Below are positions 7,968 to 62,578 of a stretch of 64,000 bases of DNA, in pieces. Each line of letters begins with the position of its first letter. Position 1 is the first letter of the stretch. The notes beneath the pieces were generated by a model. That model worked only from the letters and a program-made list of their open reading frames with translations. It was not told where the DNA came from and ran no database searches. This stretch comes from Octopus vulgaris (taxonomy: Eukaryota). The position numbers and the translations under genes are program-made. The stretch is taken from positions 17,608,001 to 17,672,000 of the forward strand of contig OX597816.1 in NCBI GenBank assembly GCA_951406725.2, read 5' to 3'.

Positions 7968-8261
7968 AATATAATAAAAAAAGGGTAATAACATAGATTA
8001 CTACCAGTGGCCCAGCACAAAAGACGAATTAGTCATTAGACACAATATTATTCATATAGAAAAATATTATTCATATAGAAATATAATTAAGGGCTCCTAA
8101 ATAAGGATGCTAAGTGCTAGGGACACAAAAAGGGATAAATTCATCGAGAGTGAAAATCAAAAACATTTACCATTAACGATATATCCCGGACTGATCAGTT
8201 TCTACCTCTTTCTAGCAAAACAGACATATATATATATATTATAACTTGAATTCCTCTACAT

Positions 8262-8735
8262 ATAAAATAACTGGAAGAGGTATCTGGATGACTGCTTCAT
8301 TCTTTGGCATGAAAGTGTAGAGAGACTTAAAGAATTCCAAGCCCTTCTGAATGGACTTGACATAAACATTCAATCTACGATGGAATATAGCCACCAACAA
8401 CTTCCATTCTTCAACATAATCATCAAGAAATCCAACAACAAAATAGAAACAGACATCTACTATAAGCCCGCGGACTCCCAGTAATATCGTTCCATTCATG
8501 CCAGCCCAGACACACTAGAAGAAATATCCTCTTCAACCTGGCAAAACGGATTTGTACTATACAAGCACTAGGGACACACGACTATATGAGCTAAAGGATA
8601 TACTCATCAGCAGGATCTGCTCACCGTCACTAATTGATATAGGCTTTCAACGTGCACTACAACTCAACAACCACGAACTCAGACACCCCTTACAACTAAA
8701 AGCTCTACCATAAATATCCACACACAACCCGCTTA
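8262..8735 (+). pseudogene. Penelope-like element reverse transcriptase fragment
   Basis: NWKRYLDDCFILW...LNGLDINIQSTMEYSHQQLPFFNIIIKKSNNKIETDIYYKPADSQ*Y gives PLE RT motifs WxRYxDD, LPFLD-like and TDIYxKPT-like. Confidence 0.85.
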
Positions 8736-9134
8736 ACAAGGAAGCCTTCGACACCAAGCTCCAGCACATAGGTGTGTGTGAATGCGCACGTGTGGGTGTG
8801 CGTGTGCATATTTCTGTTTATGGTACCTTGTAAATAAGTACTCAGACATTGAAATACTTATGGTCAAACCGTCGGCCACTAAAGGCACGGGAAAATGTTT
8901 TCTAGTATGTAGAATGTACTCCTTCGGGGACAAGAACATGCTTGTTAAATGGAAAAAAGAAAAATGGCGGACTTCCTTATGGATCAACACTCAATACTGC
9001 ATATTGCCCTCTCAACTTTGAAGTACTCCCTTCTATCGGACTCGCAAGCGGAACAGCCTATTCCGTCGATTTTGTAACGGTCTCGCTGAATTATAAACAT
9101 ACATACATACATACATACATACACACACACGCAG

Positions 9135-10128: not shown

Positions 10129-10613
<485 letters not shown>

Positions 10614-10615
<2 letters not shown>

Positions 10616-12465
10616 CGCGGACGACACGTGTCTGCATACGCGGACGACGTCACCGTCATAGTGTCTAGCCACGAGCACATCGAGCAGGTCGGCGAGACAC
10701 TGAAAAACTACGAAGCGGTGACAGGAGCGAAAATCAACCGGGAAAAGTCAGTGGGCTTGCGACTAGGCACCTGGAGAAGCAAGCCCATGCCGTCCACCAG
10801 CGCCTCCGTCGTGGGACGCTGGACCGACGGCCCGGTTGAGTTGCTCGGGGTCTGGTTTGGTCCGGACCTCCAAGTGGAGAAGAACTGGAACGAGATAACG
10901 AGTAGGGTGGTCACTCTCGCCCGGCAATGGGCCGAGAGGAAACTGTCCCTAAAAGGTCGGGCGGAGGTGGCGAACACGTACATCGCGTCCGTCATCTACT
11001 ACCGCCTGACCGTCGTGCCTTGTCCCGACCCTACCATCACCAAACTACAACGCATTCTCTTTCGCTTCTTGTGGAAAGGATGCGTCCCGATGGTCAGGCG
11101 ATCCAATTGCTGTCAACACCCGTTAAAAGGAGGACTGTGCATGCCGTGGTTGATGATGCGCAGACACGCGCTGAGACTGCGACATCTCTGGCTCTATGTA
11201 GACGACGGTGAACAGGTGTGGTCGCCGTTTGTGAGGCACGCTTTCCCGCAGCTCGTCTCCATGACCGAACTGCAGTCGTGGATCAAAAAGAGGCCGAGGA
11301 AGGGCGTATGGCACCGCGAGTGTCGCGTTGCTCTCAAGCAACTCTGCCGTCCTGGGTCGACCTTGAGTGACTTCATCACAACCAAAGCATTCTATAGGGG
11401 ATTAGTGGAGGGGAGGTACGACGACGAGCTCAGGGCGAACCTGGACGTCGACGAGGAGTACCTGACCCGCCTATTCGGGACGACTTTCGGGCCAGGGCCC
11501 ATGGACAACTTCCAGAGATCCCTGGCCTGGCAGTGCTACCGAGAAGCGCTACCCGTTCGGGATAAGCTCTACAGACACGGCTCGAGAAACACGGGGCCGA
11601 CCTGCCCAAGATGCGGTCAGACCTGTGGGCTTATGTCGAACAACTGCTGTCACGTGTGGGACGAGTCGGTTTATCAGCTGAGTCTATCGTCAATATTGTC
11701 ACGCCTCCTTCTTTCAAACGGGAAGGAAGAGCTATTTTCATCACCCTTGTGGCTATGGTGAAAGAATGTATCTGGTGGACGCGTCTGAAAGGATTGGAGA
11801 CAAACACTTTCCTCTCTGGTCAATCTCTCATCAACTTCTTCAAGTACCACTTGAAAAGGAAAGTGAGAGTAGAGAGGCAAGTTTTCTCTAGCGAATGTTT
11901 TAAAAAAAGATGGGTGAATGTAGCAAGGATGGCACGTATGAATGACGAAGCCACCTTGAGCATAACCCTATGAACCCAGAAATTGAAAACAGAGGGTTAC
12001 CCACTTGCAAACAAATGTGGTAACATATAACAATATTGACCAAGGTTACCGTGGTCTTTTTCGTAGGCTTTTCTTCCCACGGATAAACCTTACTTGCTTT
12101 CCCCTTTACACCATATATCATAACACTGTGATACACGATTCCTATTGATCGTTTTTTTTCCTCTTCCCCATTTTTTCCCCTTTTTTCTTCCTTTTTCATT
12201 TCTCTTTTCTTTTGTTCCTTTTCCTTTTCTTTTTTTTTCTTTTTCTTTTTTTATTTTTTATAATTTTTTTATTTATTTATTTTTTATTTTTTTATTTTTT
12301 TTGTTTTTTTCTTTCCTTTTACGATCCCTCTTGATCGAAAACCTACGCCACCCCCTTTTTTTTTGTTTCTTTTGTTTTTTGTTTTTTTCATCCTCCAAAA
12401 GAAAAGCTCTACCTTGTAAACTTGTCCCATCTGTGTGCAGCCCTGTGTGGCCAATAAAGAAACTT
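10614..12465 (+). mobile_element. 5'-truncated Tx1/L1-clade non-LTR retrotransposon, copy B (ORF2 RT C-half, zinc knuckle, 3'UTR)
   Basis: SAYADDVTV, GAKINREKS, LLGVWFG, W..RKLSLKGR, RFLWKG, PLKGGL, LPVRDKL, CPRCG; frameshifting deletion near 11620; ORF ends 11973; GC-rich against its flanks. Confidence 0.93.
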
Positions 12466-12474
12466 ACCTATCTG

Positions 12475-12543
<69 letters not shown>

Positions 12544-12546
<3 letters not shown>

Positions 12547-13122
12547 CTTCAAGTACCACTTGAAAAGGAAAGTGAGAGTAGAGAGGCAAGTTTTGTCTAG
12601 CGAATGTTTTAAAAAAAGATGGGTGAATGTAGCAAGGATGGCACGTACGAATGACGAAGCCACCTTGAGCATAATCCTATGAACCCAGAAATTGAAAATA
12701 GAGGGTTACCCACTTGCAAACAAATGTGGTAACATATAACAATATTGACCAAGGTTACCGTGGTCTTTTTCGTTGGCTTTTCTTCCCACGGATAAACCTT
12801 ACTTGCTTTCCCCTTTACACCATATATCGTAACACTGTGATACACGATCCCTATTGATCGTTCTTTTTTTCCTCTTCCCCTTTTTTCCCCTTTTCCTTTT
12901 CTTTTTTTTTCTTTTTATTCTTTTTATTCTTTTTATTTATTCAATTTTTTTTTGTTTTTGTTCTTTTCTTCCCTTTTACGATCCCTCTTGATCGAAAACC
13001 TACGCCACCCCCTTTTTTTTTGTTTCTTTTTTTTTTTTTTTTTTCCATCCTCCAAAAGAAAAGCTCTACCTTGTAAACTTGTCCCATCTGTGTGCAGCCC
13101 TGTGTGGCCAATAAAGAAACTT
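12544..13122 (+). mobile_element. Tx1/L1-clade LINE, 5'-truncated copy C
   Basis: Near-identical to 11836-12465 with scattered substitutions; same 3' terminus. Confidence 0.92.
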
Positions 13123-13148
13123 ACCTATCTGTCTATCTATCTATCTAC

Positions 13149-13312
<164 letters not shown>

Positions 13313-13317
13313 AGAAT

Positions 13318-22622: not shown

Positions 22623-22707
22623 AAAAAATAACAATATTTCCATGCAGGATTAAATTTTAATTTCTTCATTAAATCGCTTTACGATTCTTATCCCAGACAT
22701 CATAATC

Positions 22708-23516
22708 TTTTCTACTCTAGGCACAAGGCCTGAAATTTTGGAGGAGGGCGGGGCTGTCAATTAGATCAACCCAGTACGAAACTGGTACTTAATTTATCGA
22801 CCCCGAAAGGATGAAAGGCAAAGTCGATTTCGGCGGAATTTGAACTCAGAACGTAGCGGCTGAAGAAATAACTATTTGTTTGTTACCCCCAAGGAGCTAA
22901 ACACAGAGAGGACAAACAAGGACAGACAAACGGATTAAGTCGATTATATCGACCCCAGTGCGTAACTGGTACTTATTTAATCGAACCCGAAAGGATGAAA
23001 GGCAAGGTCGACCTCGGCGGAATTTGAACTCAGAACGTAGCGGCAGAGGAAATACCTATTTCTTTACTACCCACAAGGGGCTAAACATTAGAGTGGACAA
23101 ACAAGGACAGACAAACGGATTAAGTCGATTATATCGACCCCAGTGCGTAACTGGTACTTATTTAATCGAACCCGAAAGGATGAAAGGCAAAGTCGACCTT
23201 GGAGGAATTTGAACTCAGAATGTAACGGCAAACGTATTACCGCGAAGCATATCGCCCGGCATGCTAGCGTTTCTTATTTCTTTATTGCCCCCCTCCCCCC
23301 AAGGGGCTAAACATAGAGGGGGAAAAGAAGGACAGAGAACGGGATGAAGTCGATTATATCGACCCCAGTGCGTAACTGGTACTTAATTTATCGACCTCGA
23401 AAGGATGAAAGGCAAAGTCGACCTCGGCGGAATGTGAACTCAGAACGTAAAGACAAACGAAATACGGCTACGCATTTCACCCGGCGTGCTAACGGTTCTG
23501 CCAGCTCGTCGCCTTC
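22708..23516 (-). mobile_element. SINE family A tetramer
   Basis: Four central domains in tandem; one complete head (23516), three tail-A ends and a terminal tail B. Confidence 0.9.
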
Positions 23517-27110: not shown

Positions 27111-28997
27111 ATACACTAATTTTTATATGAAAAATATGTCTATTGACTTTGTATACATGCTAGGCCACTGGTAGAAAAAATTTCTATAAGTTTTCTAACC
27201 CTATATTAATTTTAAGAAATGATATCTAAAACATAACGTGGAGTGTCTACAGAATGAGACGATTGGGTACAGCTGTTTCGACGCTGATGGTCTGGTACAG
27301 CCGAGTGTTTTGACGATAGTACATTTTGACGCTGAAGACATACGCACGCGCGCACACACACACACTTATACATACACTCACAAGAACACACAAGTAGAAA
27401 TCTGCGCATACAGAGAGAAAGAGTAAAAGAAAGAGAGGAGGATAAGGACATTACTATTTATTGATTGCAAACAACTGACGTAAGGATATTCTGTTTCACC
27501 ATACGCATACATAAGTATGCACTCACATACATAAAGTATGCACGCGCAAAGAGAAAGCTAGCGTCGAAACAGCGACGCCGAAACGACTGTCAAACCTTTC
27601 ATACCTGGATGTTCAGATATCTATTAAAACACAGAATGGTGAATAGCAAAAACGGTGCTGCATCCGCCAAAGGATTTTGTGGTGTTTGGTTGCGTTATTT
27701 TAGATCCTATTGGAATCATCTTAGCTTTTTTTACCCTACAGGAATCAATGAGATGTATGCCAGTCAGGTACGAGCTGCAGCAATTCGAGTTAATCGATTG
27801 TTGCCTTGTCCCAAATTCCCCCGTTTGTTCCCCGCTAAGAAATCAATACTACTAACAATGCACACTTATATCTCAGATGGAGCTAGTTTAATAAACTAGT
27901 GTCACGACAAGTATTTCTCAGAAGTTTATTAGAAAAATTACCGTTAATACAATCGTCACCTACAGAGCTTTTAATATAATTAAATTAATTTTATTATGTA
28001 ATAAATACTTTTCACAAAACGCACAATCGTATTTTTAGCAATGTAAGTTTTAGTAGAAATATAATCAGAACGACATTATTAATTTCATTCTGTGTTTTAT
28101 TATTATTATTTTTCTTTTTATTTTTTCTTTTATTAATTATTTTTATTGAATCGACAGTGAAATATCTCAATAATACTAAAAGAAACTTTAATTTTGTAAC
28201 AATTGTGAAAATTTCAAAGGCAGAAATTTATTAGAAGTGCTAAAGTGTCTTCATCACATGTCACGCTTCGTTTGCTTACAAAGTGAAAAGAAAAGAACCA
28301 AAAAATAATAATAATAATAAATATATAAAAGAAAGAAAGAAAATAGAAATACAAAGAAAAGAAAGGAAAATTTATGAAGACAAATCAGTTACAATTAACG
28401 GATTCAAAGCAAAAGAGGAAACACTTTCGAACACATATTGTTATGATGAAAAGTGATATATTTGTTTCTCGCGAGAATATGAAATAAGATTTTTAGCTTA
28501 CAGTAATGTTTGAAATATTCACGTATATTTTGATGAGACATTTAGCAATCGTTAGATTTATACGCTTAGAGAATAATACTTGGAATCTTATCTTCTAATG
28601 CAATCTATTACCTTTTGCATCTTAAATATAGCCAAATTGATTTAAATTTGAGCTGGTATGTTTTCGTTTTCTATCATAAGATCAAAGAAACATCAATTTA
28701 TTTTTGTTTCCTGTCATGATAGAAACGTTACATTAAGATAAAAAAAAAGTGACTAAGTAGCAACTCAGTAATAAAATGCACCATATATTATGACTATACT
28801 TAGTATTGATTTCACACAAATAATTCAAGCTCAAATATACAACTGATTTTAGCAGTAGAGGTAATTGTATTTGGAGTAGCTGTTGTATATTCATTGCGGA
28901 AAATTCAATCCTGATAACCGTTTAGTCAGCAAATTGTATTTGCCGAGTAATATCATTTCTAATTTTTTTTCGACACAAGGCCAGCAGTTTTGATGGG

Positions 28998-29604
28998 AAG
29001 GTGGTGAGCTGGCAGAAACGTTAGGACACCGGGCGAAATGCTTAGCGGTATTTCGTCTGCTGCTACGTTCTGACTTCAAATTCCGCCGAGGTCGACTTTG
29101 CCTTTCATCCTTTCGGGGTCGATTAAATAAGTACCAGTTACGCAATGGAGTCGATGTAATCGACTTAATCAGTTTGTCTGTCCTTGTTTGTCCCCTTTGT
29201 GTTTAGCTCCTTGCGGGTAGTAAAGACATAGGTATTTCGTCTGCCGCTACATTCTGAGTTCAAATTCCGCCGAGGCCACTTTGCCTTTCATCCGTTCGGG
29301 GTCGATAAATTAAGAACCAGTTACGCAGTGGGGTCGGTATAATCGACTTAACCCGTTTGTCTGTCCTTGTTTGTCCCCTTTGAGTTTAGCCCCTTGTGGG
29401 TAGTAAAGAAATAGGTATTTCGTCTGCCGTTACGTTCTGAGTTCAAATTCCGCCGAGGTCGACTTTGCCTTTCATCCTTTTGGGGTCGATAAATAAAGTA
29501 CCAGTTACGCACTGGGGTCGATGCAATCGACTTAATCCCTTTGTCTGTCCTTCTTTGTCCCCTCTATGTTTAGCCCCTTGTGGGCTATAAAGAAATAGGT
29601 ATTT
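28998..29604 (+). mobile_element. SINE family A trimer
   Basis: Full unit plus two units restarting at ggtatttcgtctgccg (29231, 29414). Confidence 0.9.
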
Positions 29605-31833: not shown

Positions 31834-31913
31834 ATATCCATACACACACACACACATATCCAATAACTAACAATAACAATAACGGATCGAACCAGTACGT
31901 GTGTTTATTATAT

Positions 31914-32138
31914 ATTTCTTTACTAACCTACAAGGGGCTAAACACAGAGGGGACAAACAAGGACAGACATAGGTATTAAGTCGATTACATCGACCCCAGT
32001 GCGTAACTGGTACTTTATTTATCGACCCTGAAAGGATGAAAGGCAAAGTCGACCTCGGCGGAATTTGAACTCAGAACGTAGCGGCAGACGAAATACCGCT
32101 AAGCATTTCGCCCGGCGCACTAACGCTTCTGCCAGCTC
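31914..32138 (-). mobile_element. SINE family A (tail A)
   Basis: Near-consensus copy. Confidence 0.88.
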
Positions 32139-54089: not shown

Positions 54090-54542
54090 TGTTTTCATTT
54101 ATTTTCCACAAGGGCCGAAGACTGGATGGGACAATACAATGACAGAAGTTCTGGGGTTTACATATAATGAAATGATAAAAAATAGAAAGAAGGTAGCTAT
54201 AGACGGTATACATTGGCAAGGAAGTGACGTATGCATGGCATACAAAGATTTAAAGGCAGAAGGGCAGGGAAGATTATAGAGATGTGGCCCTCCTGATACA
54301 GGAAGGCCTCTAGGGATAATCGAGGATTCCCACTGTCCGAGATTTCCATGAAACCCAAAGAACAAGTGCTTTCTCCAATTCCTTCTCTCTAACTGACAGG
54401 TCTACACTTAAAAAGGTACCATCCGCTCTTGCCATTTTTAGCAGCTTTCATCCATCTTTCAATAAACTCATTCGAGGAGGACAGCACTTTCCTCTCCACA
54501 TTCAATCTCCTTTTCAAGTGAAACTCGAAGAATTCAGTGAGA
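54090..54542 (-). mobile_element. 3' end of a second Tx1/L1-clade family
   Basis: LTEFFEFHLKRRLNVERKVL..FIERWMKAAKMAR aligns with LINFFKYHLKRKVRVERQVF..FKKRWVNVARMAR of 11826-11973; terminus gtcccatcc..gcccttgtggaaaataaatgaaaac. Confidence 0.8.
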
Positions 54543-54699
54543 ATTCTTCTCCTTCTTCTTTATTTCCTCCTCCTCCTTTTCCTCCCCTCCTCCTTTTCCC
54601 CTCCTCCTCCAAAACTGATTAAATATTTTTCCTTTTCCCTTTTCGTTCGTTTTATTCCCCTCTTTCTTTCTGTCTTTTTCTTTCTGTCATTTATAAAAT

Positions 54700-56209: not shown

Positions 56210-56795
56210 AGCCTTGGCTCTGTGGTAAGAAGTCTGCTTCCCAACCACATGGTTTTGGGTTCAATCTCACTGCGTAGCACTTTGGACAAGTGTCTTCTAA
56301 TATAGTTGCTTCTTTATTACCCACAAGCGGCTAAACATAGAGGGGACAAACAAGGACAGACAAGGGCATTAAGTCGATTACATCGACCCCAGTGCGTAAC
56401 TGGTACTTAATTTATCGACCCCGAAAGGATGGAAGGCAAAGTCGACCTCGGCGGAATTTGAACTCAGAACGTAACGGCAGACGAAATATGGCTACGCATT
56501 TCGCCCGGCGTGCCAACGATTGTGCCAGCTCACCGCCTTCAATGTCTTCAAATATATCCTCAGGTCCCGGCCAAAGCCTTGTAGGTGTATTTGGTTGACG
56601 GAAACTGAAAGAAGCCTTGATGTCCACCTGCTTCGCTTGCGGGTTTAGTAACTTGGCGGTGCGGTAAAAAAGGCCGATAAATTATGTACCAGGCTTTAAA
56701 AACGAATACAGGTGCCGCTTCGGACGGCTAGAAATTATTCAAGGTGGTGCCCCAGCATGGCCGAAAAGTAATGACTGAAACAAATGAAAGATAGA
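56210..56795 (+). mobile_element. SINE family B with nested antisense SINE A (56310-56540)
   Basis: Host split at the CORE motif; degenerate duplication tgtcttctaatata / tgtcttcaaatata on either side. Confidence 0.82.
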
Positions 56796-59066: not shown

Positions 59067-60132
59067 ATAGAAATATATATGAAAGAAGGTTTGAAAATGC
59101 AATTTTAAAGATGTCTGTTCACTTGACCGGTTTCACTTTTTTAGAAAATATTGTCAAAAGTAAAATGTAAAACTTTGTATAAGCTTTGTTGTGTTAAGTA
59201 CTGGTTGTCACAAAATATCAAAATACATATATACATACTTTGATAATAATAAGAATAATAAGAAAATTTATAATAAAAAAATTTTTCTACAGAGCAAATA
59301 TGAAATTTAAGAATGACTACTAAGACCAAAAAATAATCAATGATAATACTGATGGGTTATGTATAGGAACTGGTTACTGTATGCTATCGATTGAGGAAAG
59401 GTGTCTTTGGATGTTTTCATTCAGAACCACTAAAACAAGCGCGAAGCGGTCCATCATTACACTCTCCCTGAATATGTGATAGCAGAGAAGGACCGAATTT
59501 ACATTTTTATATATTTAATTACCACAGCTAAGACTCTCACACATACATACATGCATGCACACAACATACATGCATGCATGCATGCATACTTGCATACATA
59601 CATACATACATACATACATACATACATACATACATACATACATACATACATACATACATACGTACATCTGTGAGCGGAACAGTAAAAATATGCATGATTT
59701 TTCTCAATTTCCAAATGTGAATTCGTCTGTGTTAATTACATTCCAAAGTTGGAGCCTTGTATACTTTTTGGAAACCAGTTTCTTCTTCAGTGGAAGATTT
59801 ATAATAAAAAATAGAAGAGACATACATACAGACAGACACAGACACACACACAGACACACAGACGCACACACAAACACACACACAGACGCACACACACACA
59901 CATACACACACACACACACATATATCCACACACTTTGACACTTAGATAGGTTTCGGCCAGTATTGGTTCAGGCAATGCCAAATTTAATAGCACCACCTAG
60001 CGAATTAATTCCAATCAGGAATCGGACTACTCAAATAGAGAGTTATTGTTTAGGGAGATATATCCGGGTGTAGGAGGTTTATCCGGGATCTCTTGAAGGA
60101 ATTTGTACAATATGTATATTATTATTATCATT

Positions 60133-61058
60133 CAGTAGTTTTATTTTTATAGCGTGCTTTCACTTCACTACCGAGCACAGCTCTGTGTGCCTTGGGTATG
60201 TGCTGTGATTTGTTGTGATGCTCTGATGGTTACTGTATTGAAAGTGTTCTGCGTAGGATGTGTGCAGTGCCCAGTAGTGCAATTTTCTGTATGTTATATG
60301 TGTTTGTAAGTCCTGGTGTTTTGTTATGTATTTGTCTGAATATTTTTTTATCATGCCTAATGCACCTATTATGATAAGAATTGCTTCTGTTTTTAGATTC
60401 CACATTCTGGTTACCTCTATTTCCAGGTCTTTGTATTTTGAAAGTTTCTCCATTTCTTTTAGAGACACGTTGTCATCTGCCGGTATTGATACATCAATTA
60501 GAAAGCATTTTTTTCTTCATGATCTCTGACAAGTATATCTGATCTGTTGGCCTTAATTTCTCTATCTGTGTGTATCGGCATATTCCAGAGTATGGTTGCT
60601 TTCTCGTTTTCTGTGACCTTTTCTGGTGTGTGCCTATACCATCTATTTTCTGTTGTTATTCTATAATGTTGGCATAGCTTCCAGTGTATGTAGGTTCCAA
60701 CTCTGTCATGTCTGTGAATATATGCCTTCTTAGCCAGGACTGGGCAGCCAGAGATAATATGATTTATCGTTTCTTGTCCATCTCCACATATTCTGCAGTT
60801 ACTTGTTATATTTCTTTTCATTACATGTTTTTGGTAATTTCTGGTGGGGAGGCTTTGGTCTTGTGCTGCAATTAAGAATCCCTCTGTCTCTGCTTTGAGT
60901 CCTGAGCTTCTCAACCATTGCTGGGATTTTTCTTTGTCTCTTTCTTTTGCATTTAGTTTAGTCCATGAAGGGGCTTTTCTTGCTATCGTTTTATCATGGT
61001 TCTTTGCTGTTCTAGTTTTAGTTTGGATTTCATTTGTTTTATAGCTTTTGTTGTTTCT

Positions 61059-61090
<32 letters not shown>

Positions 61091-61145
61091 TTCTTCTTGT
61101 TCTTCTTCTTCTTCTTCTTCTTCTTCTTCTTCTTCTTTTTCTTCT

Positions 61146-61177
<32 letters not shown>

Positions 61178-62203
61178 TTCTTCTTCTTCTTCTTCATATT
61201 TATTAGGTGGTATGATTTCTTGTTAATACTTGTCAGCTTCCTTAAATACTGAGAACAGTTTTTTGTTTCGCTCGTGTTTTGCCGCTGTTTGTAACAGTTT
61301 CCTTTCTTCTGAAGTAGGTATTTTTGCAGTCCTATGGTGGTTATTTTATAGTAGTTTTCCCACTGTATAAGGCCTCTACCACCTTCTATACGTTGTATAT
61401 ATAGTCATTCTATGTCAGATTTTGGGTGATGCATCCTAGATCCTGTCATTATTTTTCTTGTTTTCCTATCTATTTTGGTCAGTTCATTTAGTGTCCAGTT
61501 AAGGATATTGTAGCTGTAACTTATAACTGGGACAGCTAAAGTGTTAATACCTATTATCTTGTTTTTAGCATTGAGCTCTGTTTTTAGTATTGATCTAACT
61601 CGTTTATAATATTCTTTTTTTATTTTCTCTTTCATTTGTGTGTGTTGTGTCTTATCTAGTTCATGGATTCCTAAGTATTTGTAAGTTTGGTTTTGGTCTA
61701 ATTCTTTTATTTCATCGGTTTTATCTAGTGCGATGTTGCTACGCTTAACTAGTTTTCCTCTTTTCAGGGTTACTTTGGCGCATTTTTCTAATCCAAATTT
61801 CATATATATTTCTTTGGTAAATCCATGAACTGTCTTTAATAGTGTTTCCAGCTGTTTGTCATTTGCAGCGTATAGTTTTTGGTCATCCATATATAAAAGG
61901 TGGCTGATCGTTTTGCCGTAACATTTATATCCGCATCCAGTTCTATTTAGCATATCAGATAGAGGTGACAGTGGCAAGCAGAAAAGGAGTGGAGAGAGCG
62001 TGTCTCCTTGGAATATTCCTCTTCTAATGGGGATGGCTTTGGTTTTCATGAGTCCCTCTTTTGTTTGGAGCCGTAGCACTGTTTGCCATTTATTCATAGA
62101 GTGTCCTATGAATTTTATAATTGTTGGTGCTACTTTGTTAATGGCTAGTGTTTCGAGGATCCATGTGTGGGGGATGCTATCAAACGCCTTTTTGTAGTCG
62201 ATC
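60133..62203 (-). mobile_element. 5'-truncated R4/Dong-like RLE LINE (family 1) flanked by (TAA)n
   Basis: IDYKKAFDSIPH, RGIFQGDTLSPLLF, HLLYMDD, CRICG..ETINHIISGC..RHDRV, RSDILV..IDVSIP..KEMEKLSKYKDL; several frameshifts and stops. Confidence 0.93.
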
Positions 62204-62204
62204 C

Positions 62205-62253
<49 letters not shown>

Positions 62254-62578
62254 GATATATTATTGTAGTTATTATTGTAAGAATAGACTTCCATAGACGC
62301 TTTATCTCCGTAACAAAGAAAGCTTTCTGATTTGTTTATAAATATTATATCTAGTATTAGACAGTTTAAGTATATATACCTAAAATTAGTTTGAGAATGA
62401 TAGGTGAGCGTTTGGCCCAATCGGATCCGCATGTAGCCGTGTAAGCGTTGATACGTGGGATCGGTTCTGGCTTGGGTTAGCTCATCATGTTTCAGTCAAT
62501 TTGTTTATATATAAAAGTCGATTTCAATGGAAGAATATATATATATATTATTACTATGGTATATTATCAAAGCTATTA

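Follow-up and report, generated by a model that had tools for sequence, protein, structure and literature searches.

Does an abundant octopus SINE owe its spread to an L1-related LINE that selects RNA by a specific 3′ tail, and if so, to which LINE? Tail sharing is a textbook mark of SINE/LINE pairs, the eel pair UnaL2/UnaSINE1 being a stringent example from the L2 clade, and human L1, the model of a relaxed LINE, takes poly(A) and therefore copies Alu and mRNAs. The earlier note on the window (the whole stretch of 64,000 nt of Octopus vulgaris DNA analysed here) proposed that its commonest SINE, here called SINE A, carries the 3′ tail of the Tx1-type LINE that ends at 12420–12465 and is mobilised by stringent 3′ recognition. 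The concept of SINE-LINE tail pairing proved right and the named partner, a family we call T1, wrong. The LINE features of the window are as follows.

10238 to 10535 (+): second T1 copy, a 3′ UTR fragment with the same tail
10536 to 10616 (+): (ATCT)n array between T1 copies, the T1 target
10617 to 12463 (+): main T1 copy, 5′-truncated, with the end of the RT, the C-terminal part of ORF2 and the 3′ UTR
12420 to 12463 (+): T1 3′ tail, with a TTGTCCC block, a predicted hairpin (loop CUGUGU) and AATAAAGAAAC, no poly(A)
12464 to 12544 (+): (ATCT)n array 3′ of the main T1 copy
12545 to 13120 (+): third T1 copy, with the ORF2 C-terminus, 3′ UTR and tail
13121 to 13314 (+): (ATCT)n array 3′ of the third T1 copy
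54091 to 54555 (−): T2, an old sister family, with the C-terminus of ORF2 and the 3′ UTR, the tail lying at 54091–54146 and followed by (ATT)n
60131 to 62259 (−): 5′-truncated LINE of another clade, presumably R4/Dong-like, whose 3′ end has no tail A match (negative control)

The T1 family and the shared 3′ tail

The three T1 copies of the window are stacked, 5′-truncated and separated by (ATCT)n. ORF2 of the main copy carries a short deletion with a frameshift near 11620 and is 97% identical in amino acids to intact ORF2 copies. Genome-wide (2.8 Gb) there are many copies, with 97–98% protein identity and open ORF2 frames of 1149 aa (121 copies scored out of 23,493 candidates), and judged by these copies T1 is a young, abundant family of the L1/Tx1 group. 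Pfam recovers Exo_endo_phos (APE endonuclease), RVT_1 (RT) and zf-RVT in ORF2 of both T1 and T5, a related family described below, and among solved structures human L1 ORF2p is the best match to T1 ORF2 (E = 1e-53; R2, E = 5e-20). With an APE endonuclease, an RT and a C-terminal zinc motif, both are classed by sequence as non-LTR retrotransposons of the L1 group (L1 plus Tx1). The sole named close homologue is an Argonauta protein, and no named Tx1 or L1 reference appeared among the homologues retrieved.

Tx1 ORF1 carries a CCHC zinc knuckle, unlike vertebrate L1 ORF1. This feature is present in T5 ORF1 (zf-CCHC in Pfam); in T1 ORF1 a CX2CX4HX4C motif is visible in the sequence, yet Pfam gives no match. 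A preference for microsatellites or repeats, also of Tx1 type, is seen in T1 with (ATCT)n, in family T3 with (ATT)n and in family T11 with the SINE head; T5 is mostly unspecific. Among T1 loci, 29 of 30 3′ ends consist of the tail and then (ATCT)n (L018 gave no tail match), and 5′ junctions are ATCT-like in 29 of 34, three of the other five being borders of ORF1 variants and not true ends. Four T1 copies (L068, L070, L071 and L073) have an unchanged ORF2 with a different 5′ UTR and ORF1 start, that is, 5′ end swapping within the family. One T1 5′ UTR variant (L068:2540, L071:2650) contains a 19-nt match to the SINE hairpin (GCCCCTTGTGGGC).

The colinearity claimed for the LINE end and the SINE A tail was borne out. 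Ungapped BLASTN aligns T1 tail positions 12422–12462 with SINE tail A at 29555–29595 at 80.5% identity (33/41). Local scores against two SINE A tails are 42 and 48, and none of 3,000 dinucleotide shuffles, the control named beforehand, came close (maximum 29–30). The T1 tail is present twice more in the window (10495–10535 and 13079–13119). When a full-length T1 copy was scanned in 302 windows, its 3′ end scored best (35), the next window reached 19 and the top antisense window 24. The sister LINE at 54090 ends alike, as had been stated: the T2 tail at 54091–54146 (−) scores 37 and 47 against the SINE A tails, and for T1, T2 and T4 alike 0 of 3,000 shuffles reach the observed score. Tail A matches in 1.08 Mb of examined DNA numbered 193, of which 100 were SINE, 61 had an L1/Tx1-group ORF2 upstream and 6 were T1 UTR; the remaining 26 were, by inspection, solo or truncated SINE tails, a low-complexity match within another SINE, T2 and a few short ones.

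Two other elements of the window deserve mention. The LINE at 60131–62259 (−) has an ORF2 that contains an expanded (GAA)n, and its C-terminal part resembles a restriction-like endonuclease, and a degraded fragment at 8230–8770 is presumably of Penelope type, with an RT/GIY-YIG look by eye.

SINE A and the LINE families related to T1

The SINE features of the window are listed here.

22756 to 23516 (−): SINE array of three tail-A units, the last unit ending in tail B
28997 to 29597 (+): SINE A array, one head and three body-plus-tail units joined at GGTATTTCG; third tail at 29533–29597
31913 to 32138 (−): SINE A monomer, ~225 bp, longest T run 3
56310 to 56540 (−): SINE A monomer, flanked by what is, by eye, an imperfect target-site duplication

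SINE A is short, non-coding and dispersed, with a defined 3′ end and a target-site duplication, and is thus a SINE. The monomer of ~225 bp contains no run of four T. Its head shows, by eye, an A-box-like TGGCAGAA and a B-box-like GTTCAAATTCC; ARAGORN returned 0 genes in it and Rfam no tRNA match. The body may resemble that of a Nin/Meta-type conserved-domain SINE or of the octopus OK/OR1/OR2 SINEs. Tail A terminates at AAAGAAAT(A), with no poly(A) and no repeat, and 15 of the 31 solo copies that have a head show a duplication of 12–20 bp. The hexamer AGGTAT after the tail was dropped as a part of the SINE because the 5′ copy of the duplication likewise begins GGTA.

The description of SINE A as the commonest SINE stands for one part of it: head plus body matched 21 times in the window and 64 times in 340 kb of DNA sampled evenly, above the four other repeat queries (at most 8 and 41), but tail A alone, with 30 in 340 kb, does not exceed the next SINE (37–41). 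Extrapolated from these 30, tail-A units number ~250,000 genome-wide, and a rough estimate from 13 in 340 kb puts exact copies of tail A at ~107,000. The 99 body ends in 464 kb divide into tails A (50), B (27), C (11) and unassigned (11). The 69 SINE A ends examined, a mixture of evenly sampled and search-selected loci, comprise 22 that continue into GGTATTTCG of the SINE itself, 9 that continue into AGAAACG and 38 solo ends. Neither (ATCT)3 nor (ATT)3 follows any of them.

Tails B and C (e.g. window 22700–22755 (−) and L092:2278–2325) are older, share the CUUGU loop on a GGC/GCC stem and terminate in (ATT)n, as do T2 and T3. No LINE donor for them was found among 90 B and 46 C matches, and nearly all of the 16 B and 16 C matches lacking a clean body motif still have the SINE body upstream; one unclear case is L107, where a tail-B-like end lies 300 bp after an L1/Tx1-group ORF2. 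At L335 the last 30 nt of a SINE A copy are of T11 type (loop CCGGU), likely through a SINE-LINE template switch in the tail or conversion.

The LINEs carrying this tail belong to several families. T2 is old (copies ~80% identical) and T3 young; both terminate in (ATT)n, and T3, which was uncovered via protein P0234 from the second element in L035 and not from T2, often forms 5.9-kb tandem arrays. Such head-to-tail arrays, with a period of ~5.87 kb and short (ATT)n between copies, occur at C50, C47 and C4:93.80–93.83 Mb, contig C50 holding ten copies. A search with the Argonauta homologue returned T3 only. A pattern excluding the SINE gave 160 other ends, and the 30 examined were the LINEs T5, T6 and T7 and the elements T8–T10, none of these 30 ends bearing a microsatellite array. 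T5 is 5.2 kb long, with ORF1 and an ORF2 of 1132 aa intact in two copies and duplications of 14–19 bp. T11 was found beside two loci, after which a pattern gave 74 matches; two patterns for LINE ends at SINE-head sites yielded mostly SINE variants (one with 4 matches; 30 of 36 checked).

ORF2 of T5, T6, T7 and T11 is 56–58% identical to that of T1. In a quick RT tree of 46 rows and no labelled anchor, these four form one clade (SH-aLRT 100) and T1–T4 another (85), and the two group together at 99. T8 is an ORF1-only element of ~1.9 kb, presumably a HAL1-like passenger, and T9 and T10 show no ORF2; all three have essentially only the last 45–55 nt in common with T5, T6 and T11. At L291 and L204 the ORF1-only element T8 is in tandem, sharing only its last 45–50 nt with T5/T6. 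Another derivative (L285, on C1, ending near 105509863 (−); also L246 and L251) is a T5 in which a deletion removes ORF1 and ORF2 from about aa 32 to 1081; the L285 type is nested in a SINE A head between GGC and AGAAACG, the host SINE's duplication being intact around the 2.46-kb unit. The T11 loci L325–L354 fall into two subfamilies that differ at the base before the landing site, TCGTATTT occurring mostly in the younger and TGGTATTT in the older, and the 5′ junctions of full-length T11 show a head variant, AGCCGTATTT.

Which enzymes copy SINE A

It is likely that SINE A is copied by L1/Tx1-group enzymes of the T5/T11 branch, which would recognise a predicted hairpin in the tail and not poly(A). 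We favour this branch because its tails are closer to the SINE, its ends lack microsatellites and T5a and T11 share landing sites with SINE A. The alignment of tails over families, proposed earlier as a check, placed T5 and not T1 nearest to the SINE: compared with 41 SINE A tails, the mean number of matching bases in the final 44 nt is 36.3 for T5/T5a, 35.7 for T10 and for T6/T7, 33.7 for T11, 32.4–32.6 for T1, 32.1 for T2 and 30.2 for T3 (SINE against SINE, 38.8), a ranking that favours T5–T11, as these were first found by patterns requiring a SINE-like stem. T11 ends at the SINE-head site between G and GTATTTCG in 27 of 29 examined cases, and 10 of 20 longer T11 stretches have a matching 5′ junction with a 15-bp duplication; of 69 SINE A ends, 22 lie nested at this same site and 9 at AGAAACG. 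An AGAA start was seen at 7 of 12 T5a ends, two of them inside the SINE head, and at 0 of 17 among other T5 copies. Median pairwise identity is 88.5% for SINE A, 90.7% for T11 and 93.5% for T5a, and the age ranges overlap. T5a and T11 have the insertion signature of SINE A together with an overlapping age, and T1 does not have that signature. The T11 loop (CCGGU), however, is unlike that of the SINE (CUUGU).

Tail variant and landing site are associated within SINE A: CAA tails coincide with AGAA 7 times and with GGTA 0 times, TAG tails with AGAA once and with GGTA 20 times (p = 7e-6; solo copies, p = 0.005). This split can be read in two ways, as two enzymes (T5a-like and T11-like) serving two SINE subfamilies or as read-through RNA of nested master copies pairing with the target. 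The mechanism may run as follows. Pol III would read SINE A past its end, there being no T4 terminator inside. ORF2 would bind the hairpin, and reverse transcription would start, by analogy with the L2 model, some 5 bases beyond AATAAA, at a site nicked by the endonuclease of ORF2. T11-like enzymes would place the SINE between G and GTATTTCG, T5a-like enzymes between C and AGAAA; because both sites lie within the SINE's own head, nested arrays would result. T1 would be a related family that has this tail too but has become specialised for (ATCT)n and carries the SINE rarely at most. The observations underneath are a shared terminal sequence, the same poly(A)-less end point, duplications, a tail conserved where the remaining UTR diverges, shared landing sites, the RT phylogeny and overlapping ages.

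Alternatively, the true partner could be another family of this group, now extinct or outside the sample, that had the full 65-nt tail, T5 and T11 being relatives only. The tail donor was not found, since no LINE has the whole 65-nt tail (of 41 pattern matches, the 30 checked all proved to be SINE or solo tails) and the SINE tail is, in the 20 nt at its upstream end, more like T2 and T3 than T5. In age, SINE A copies also lie somewhat above most copies of T5a and T11. Against this stand the landing sites that T11 and T5a share with SINE A, the overlap of the age ranges and the one SINE A copy with a T11-type tail end, and we regard a lost partner as unlikely.

We consider it distinctly improbable that the tail was captured once from an L1/Tx1-group LINE and then kept for 3′-end processing or stability, recognition being loose and any RNA acceptable. 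AATAAA lies just before the end and may have been kept as a Pol II signal, and human L1 needs no tail according to the portion of PMC3747384 consulted. However, the commonest SINE A variant (TAG, 37/69) has AGTAAA in place of AATAAA, and all passengers retain precisely the tail segment and share one poly(A)-less end point. Identity over the last 45 nt is 76% among 11 element types, compared with 45–51% in four upstream windows (55 pairs). The fold check suggested at the outset found a conserved stem-loop: a hairpin, a 3–4 bp stem closing CUUGU (CUGUGU in T1, CCGGU in T11), appears in 11 of 12 minimum-energy tail folds and is the sole consensus helix that RNAalifold finds in an 18-row alignment. 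Folds of single tails are weak and for the most part do not beat shuffles (for 2 of 12 tails, at most 10 of 200 shuffles did as well), which suits loose recognition, but the stem pairing survives base changes. In the hairpin columns 93% of cells pair, against 73% when shuffled and 20–48% when slid, in an alignment that was hand-trimmed and has the 6-nt loop of T1 off register. Three of four pairs vary on both sides; most of these changes are contributed by SINE tails B and C, whose relation to these LINEs is putative. The sharing of a ~45-nt tail without poly(A) by SINE A and L1/Tx1-like LINEs suggests that their enzymes pick RNA via this small predicted hairpin.

That T1 itself mobilises SINE A is very unlikely. 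In favour of T1 are its abundance, its youth, numerous intact ORF2 frames and the 33/41 tail match; moreover, 151 tail-A-type ends genome-wide lie before TATCTATC. Twelve of these were inspected and all were SINE A; since 5 of them are flanked by ATCT-like arrays at either end, T1 may carry the SINE on rare occasions, and among the matches listed 7 of 100 end in T1's own GAAACATATC. However, 151 is ~0.14% of the ~107,000 exact tails (a rough figure) and about twice the chance figure of 68. Where T1 junctions and ends are in (ATCT)n at 29 of 34 and 29 of 30 loci, SINE A ends are so at 0 of 69, and other families match its tail better; T1 is not the main route. The remaining rival, that AT-rich 3′ ends are alike by chance or convergence, can be dismissed almost entirely: the shared block is short, contains a common hexamer and scores weakly for T3 alone (2 and 21 of 3,000 shuffles), but T1, T2 and T4 stand at 0 of 3,000, the top-scoring window along an entire LINE is the 3′ end, the unrelated LINE end at 60131 has no match (70 and 1796 of 3,000) and reversed-pattern controls of the tail searches gave 0 matches.

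This returns us to the T5/T11 branch, the probable engine of roughly a quarter-million SINE units in this genome. What the sequences best suggest is that enzymes of the L1/Tx1 group mobilise RNA in a stringent, tail-dependent way. The claim of stringent recognition is accordingly supported, for an enzyme of the L1/Tx1 group, in that the tail match is beyond chance, 3′-terminal, group-wide and tied to a conserved hairpin, and fails for T1 as the partner, a LINE that sits in (ATCT)n, where SINE A almost never does. More speculatively, an animal L1/Tx1 lineage may be fully stringent, one 45-nt hairpin tail being the RNA handle for at least eight LINE families, several ORF2-less passengers and the main SINE. 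Target choice would vary freely, set in part by pairing of the read-through RNA end with the nicked site; the three SINE tails (A, B, C) would reflect partners that followed one another within a single hairpin class, and the SINE would supply its carriers' landing pads. Such a lineage would separate RNA recognition from target choice.

Comparison with known SINE/LINE systems

In molluscs, the partners named for SINEs in the consulted parts of three papers are CR1, CR1-Zenon, L2 and Nimb (PMC4758252, PMC4824008, PMC11481361). Those SINEs are like SINE A in having a conserved body with swapped, LINE-derived tails (35–61 bp, 72–95% identity), but no L1/Tx1 partner is described in these parts, and Tx1 is unmentioned in those of PMC11481361 and PMC4824008, as also in the available text of PMC5786205 and PMC5804259. 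A 2026 octopus repeat annotation has, in the sections at hand, 13 recently active L1-Tx1 families, most SINEs unclassified and no pairing (PMC13282606). The literature searched yielded no account of an L1/Tx1 tail on an octopus SINE; repeat databases or supplements could record the pair.

Stem-loop binding has been demonstrated by assay in the L2 clade, where ORF2 of zebrafish ZfL2-1 and ZfL2-2 binds the 3′ stem-loop, the stem being recognised generally and the loop specifically (PMC4176376, in part), whereas in octopus such binding is proposed, and for an L1/Tx1-group enzyme. Among Tx1 elements, relatives target microsatellites or other transposons, according to the excerpts of PMC4494074. 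The crocodilian pair SINEU/Tx1-Mar described there is like ours in that the Tx1 partner was assigned via target preference and age and that insertion is in tandem; unlike SINE A, SINEU has snRNA heads and poly(A) tails and targets Mariner, and those excerpts cite no shared tail sequence. Kibi, Koshi and the crocodilian relatives (same excerpts) target microsatellites, as T1 does with (ATCT)n and T3 with (ATT)n, but their repeat units are different ones and kinship is putative.

The closest precedents lie in plants and algae. In the parts of PMC3472496 and PMC3747384 consulted, tail sharing with the L1 group is confined to three SINEs, all plant or algal: maize ZmSINE2 and ZmSINE3, together with sorghum SINEs, pair with LINE1-1_ZM, and Chlamydomonas SINEX-3_CR pairs with L1-1_CR. 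The case for stringency in the ancestors of human L1 has so far rested on these three, as presented in the same part of PMC3472496. Compared with them, the octopus system is animal, has no poly(A) at all and includes ORF2-less passengers; several LINE families with different targets keep the tail, and SINE and LINE share landing sites in the head of the SINE itself. The stringency of L1 ancestors is testable here, in an animal lineage of the L1/Tx1 group with intact young copies, a 45-nt tail, natural loop variants and a natural passenger.
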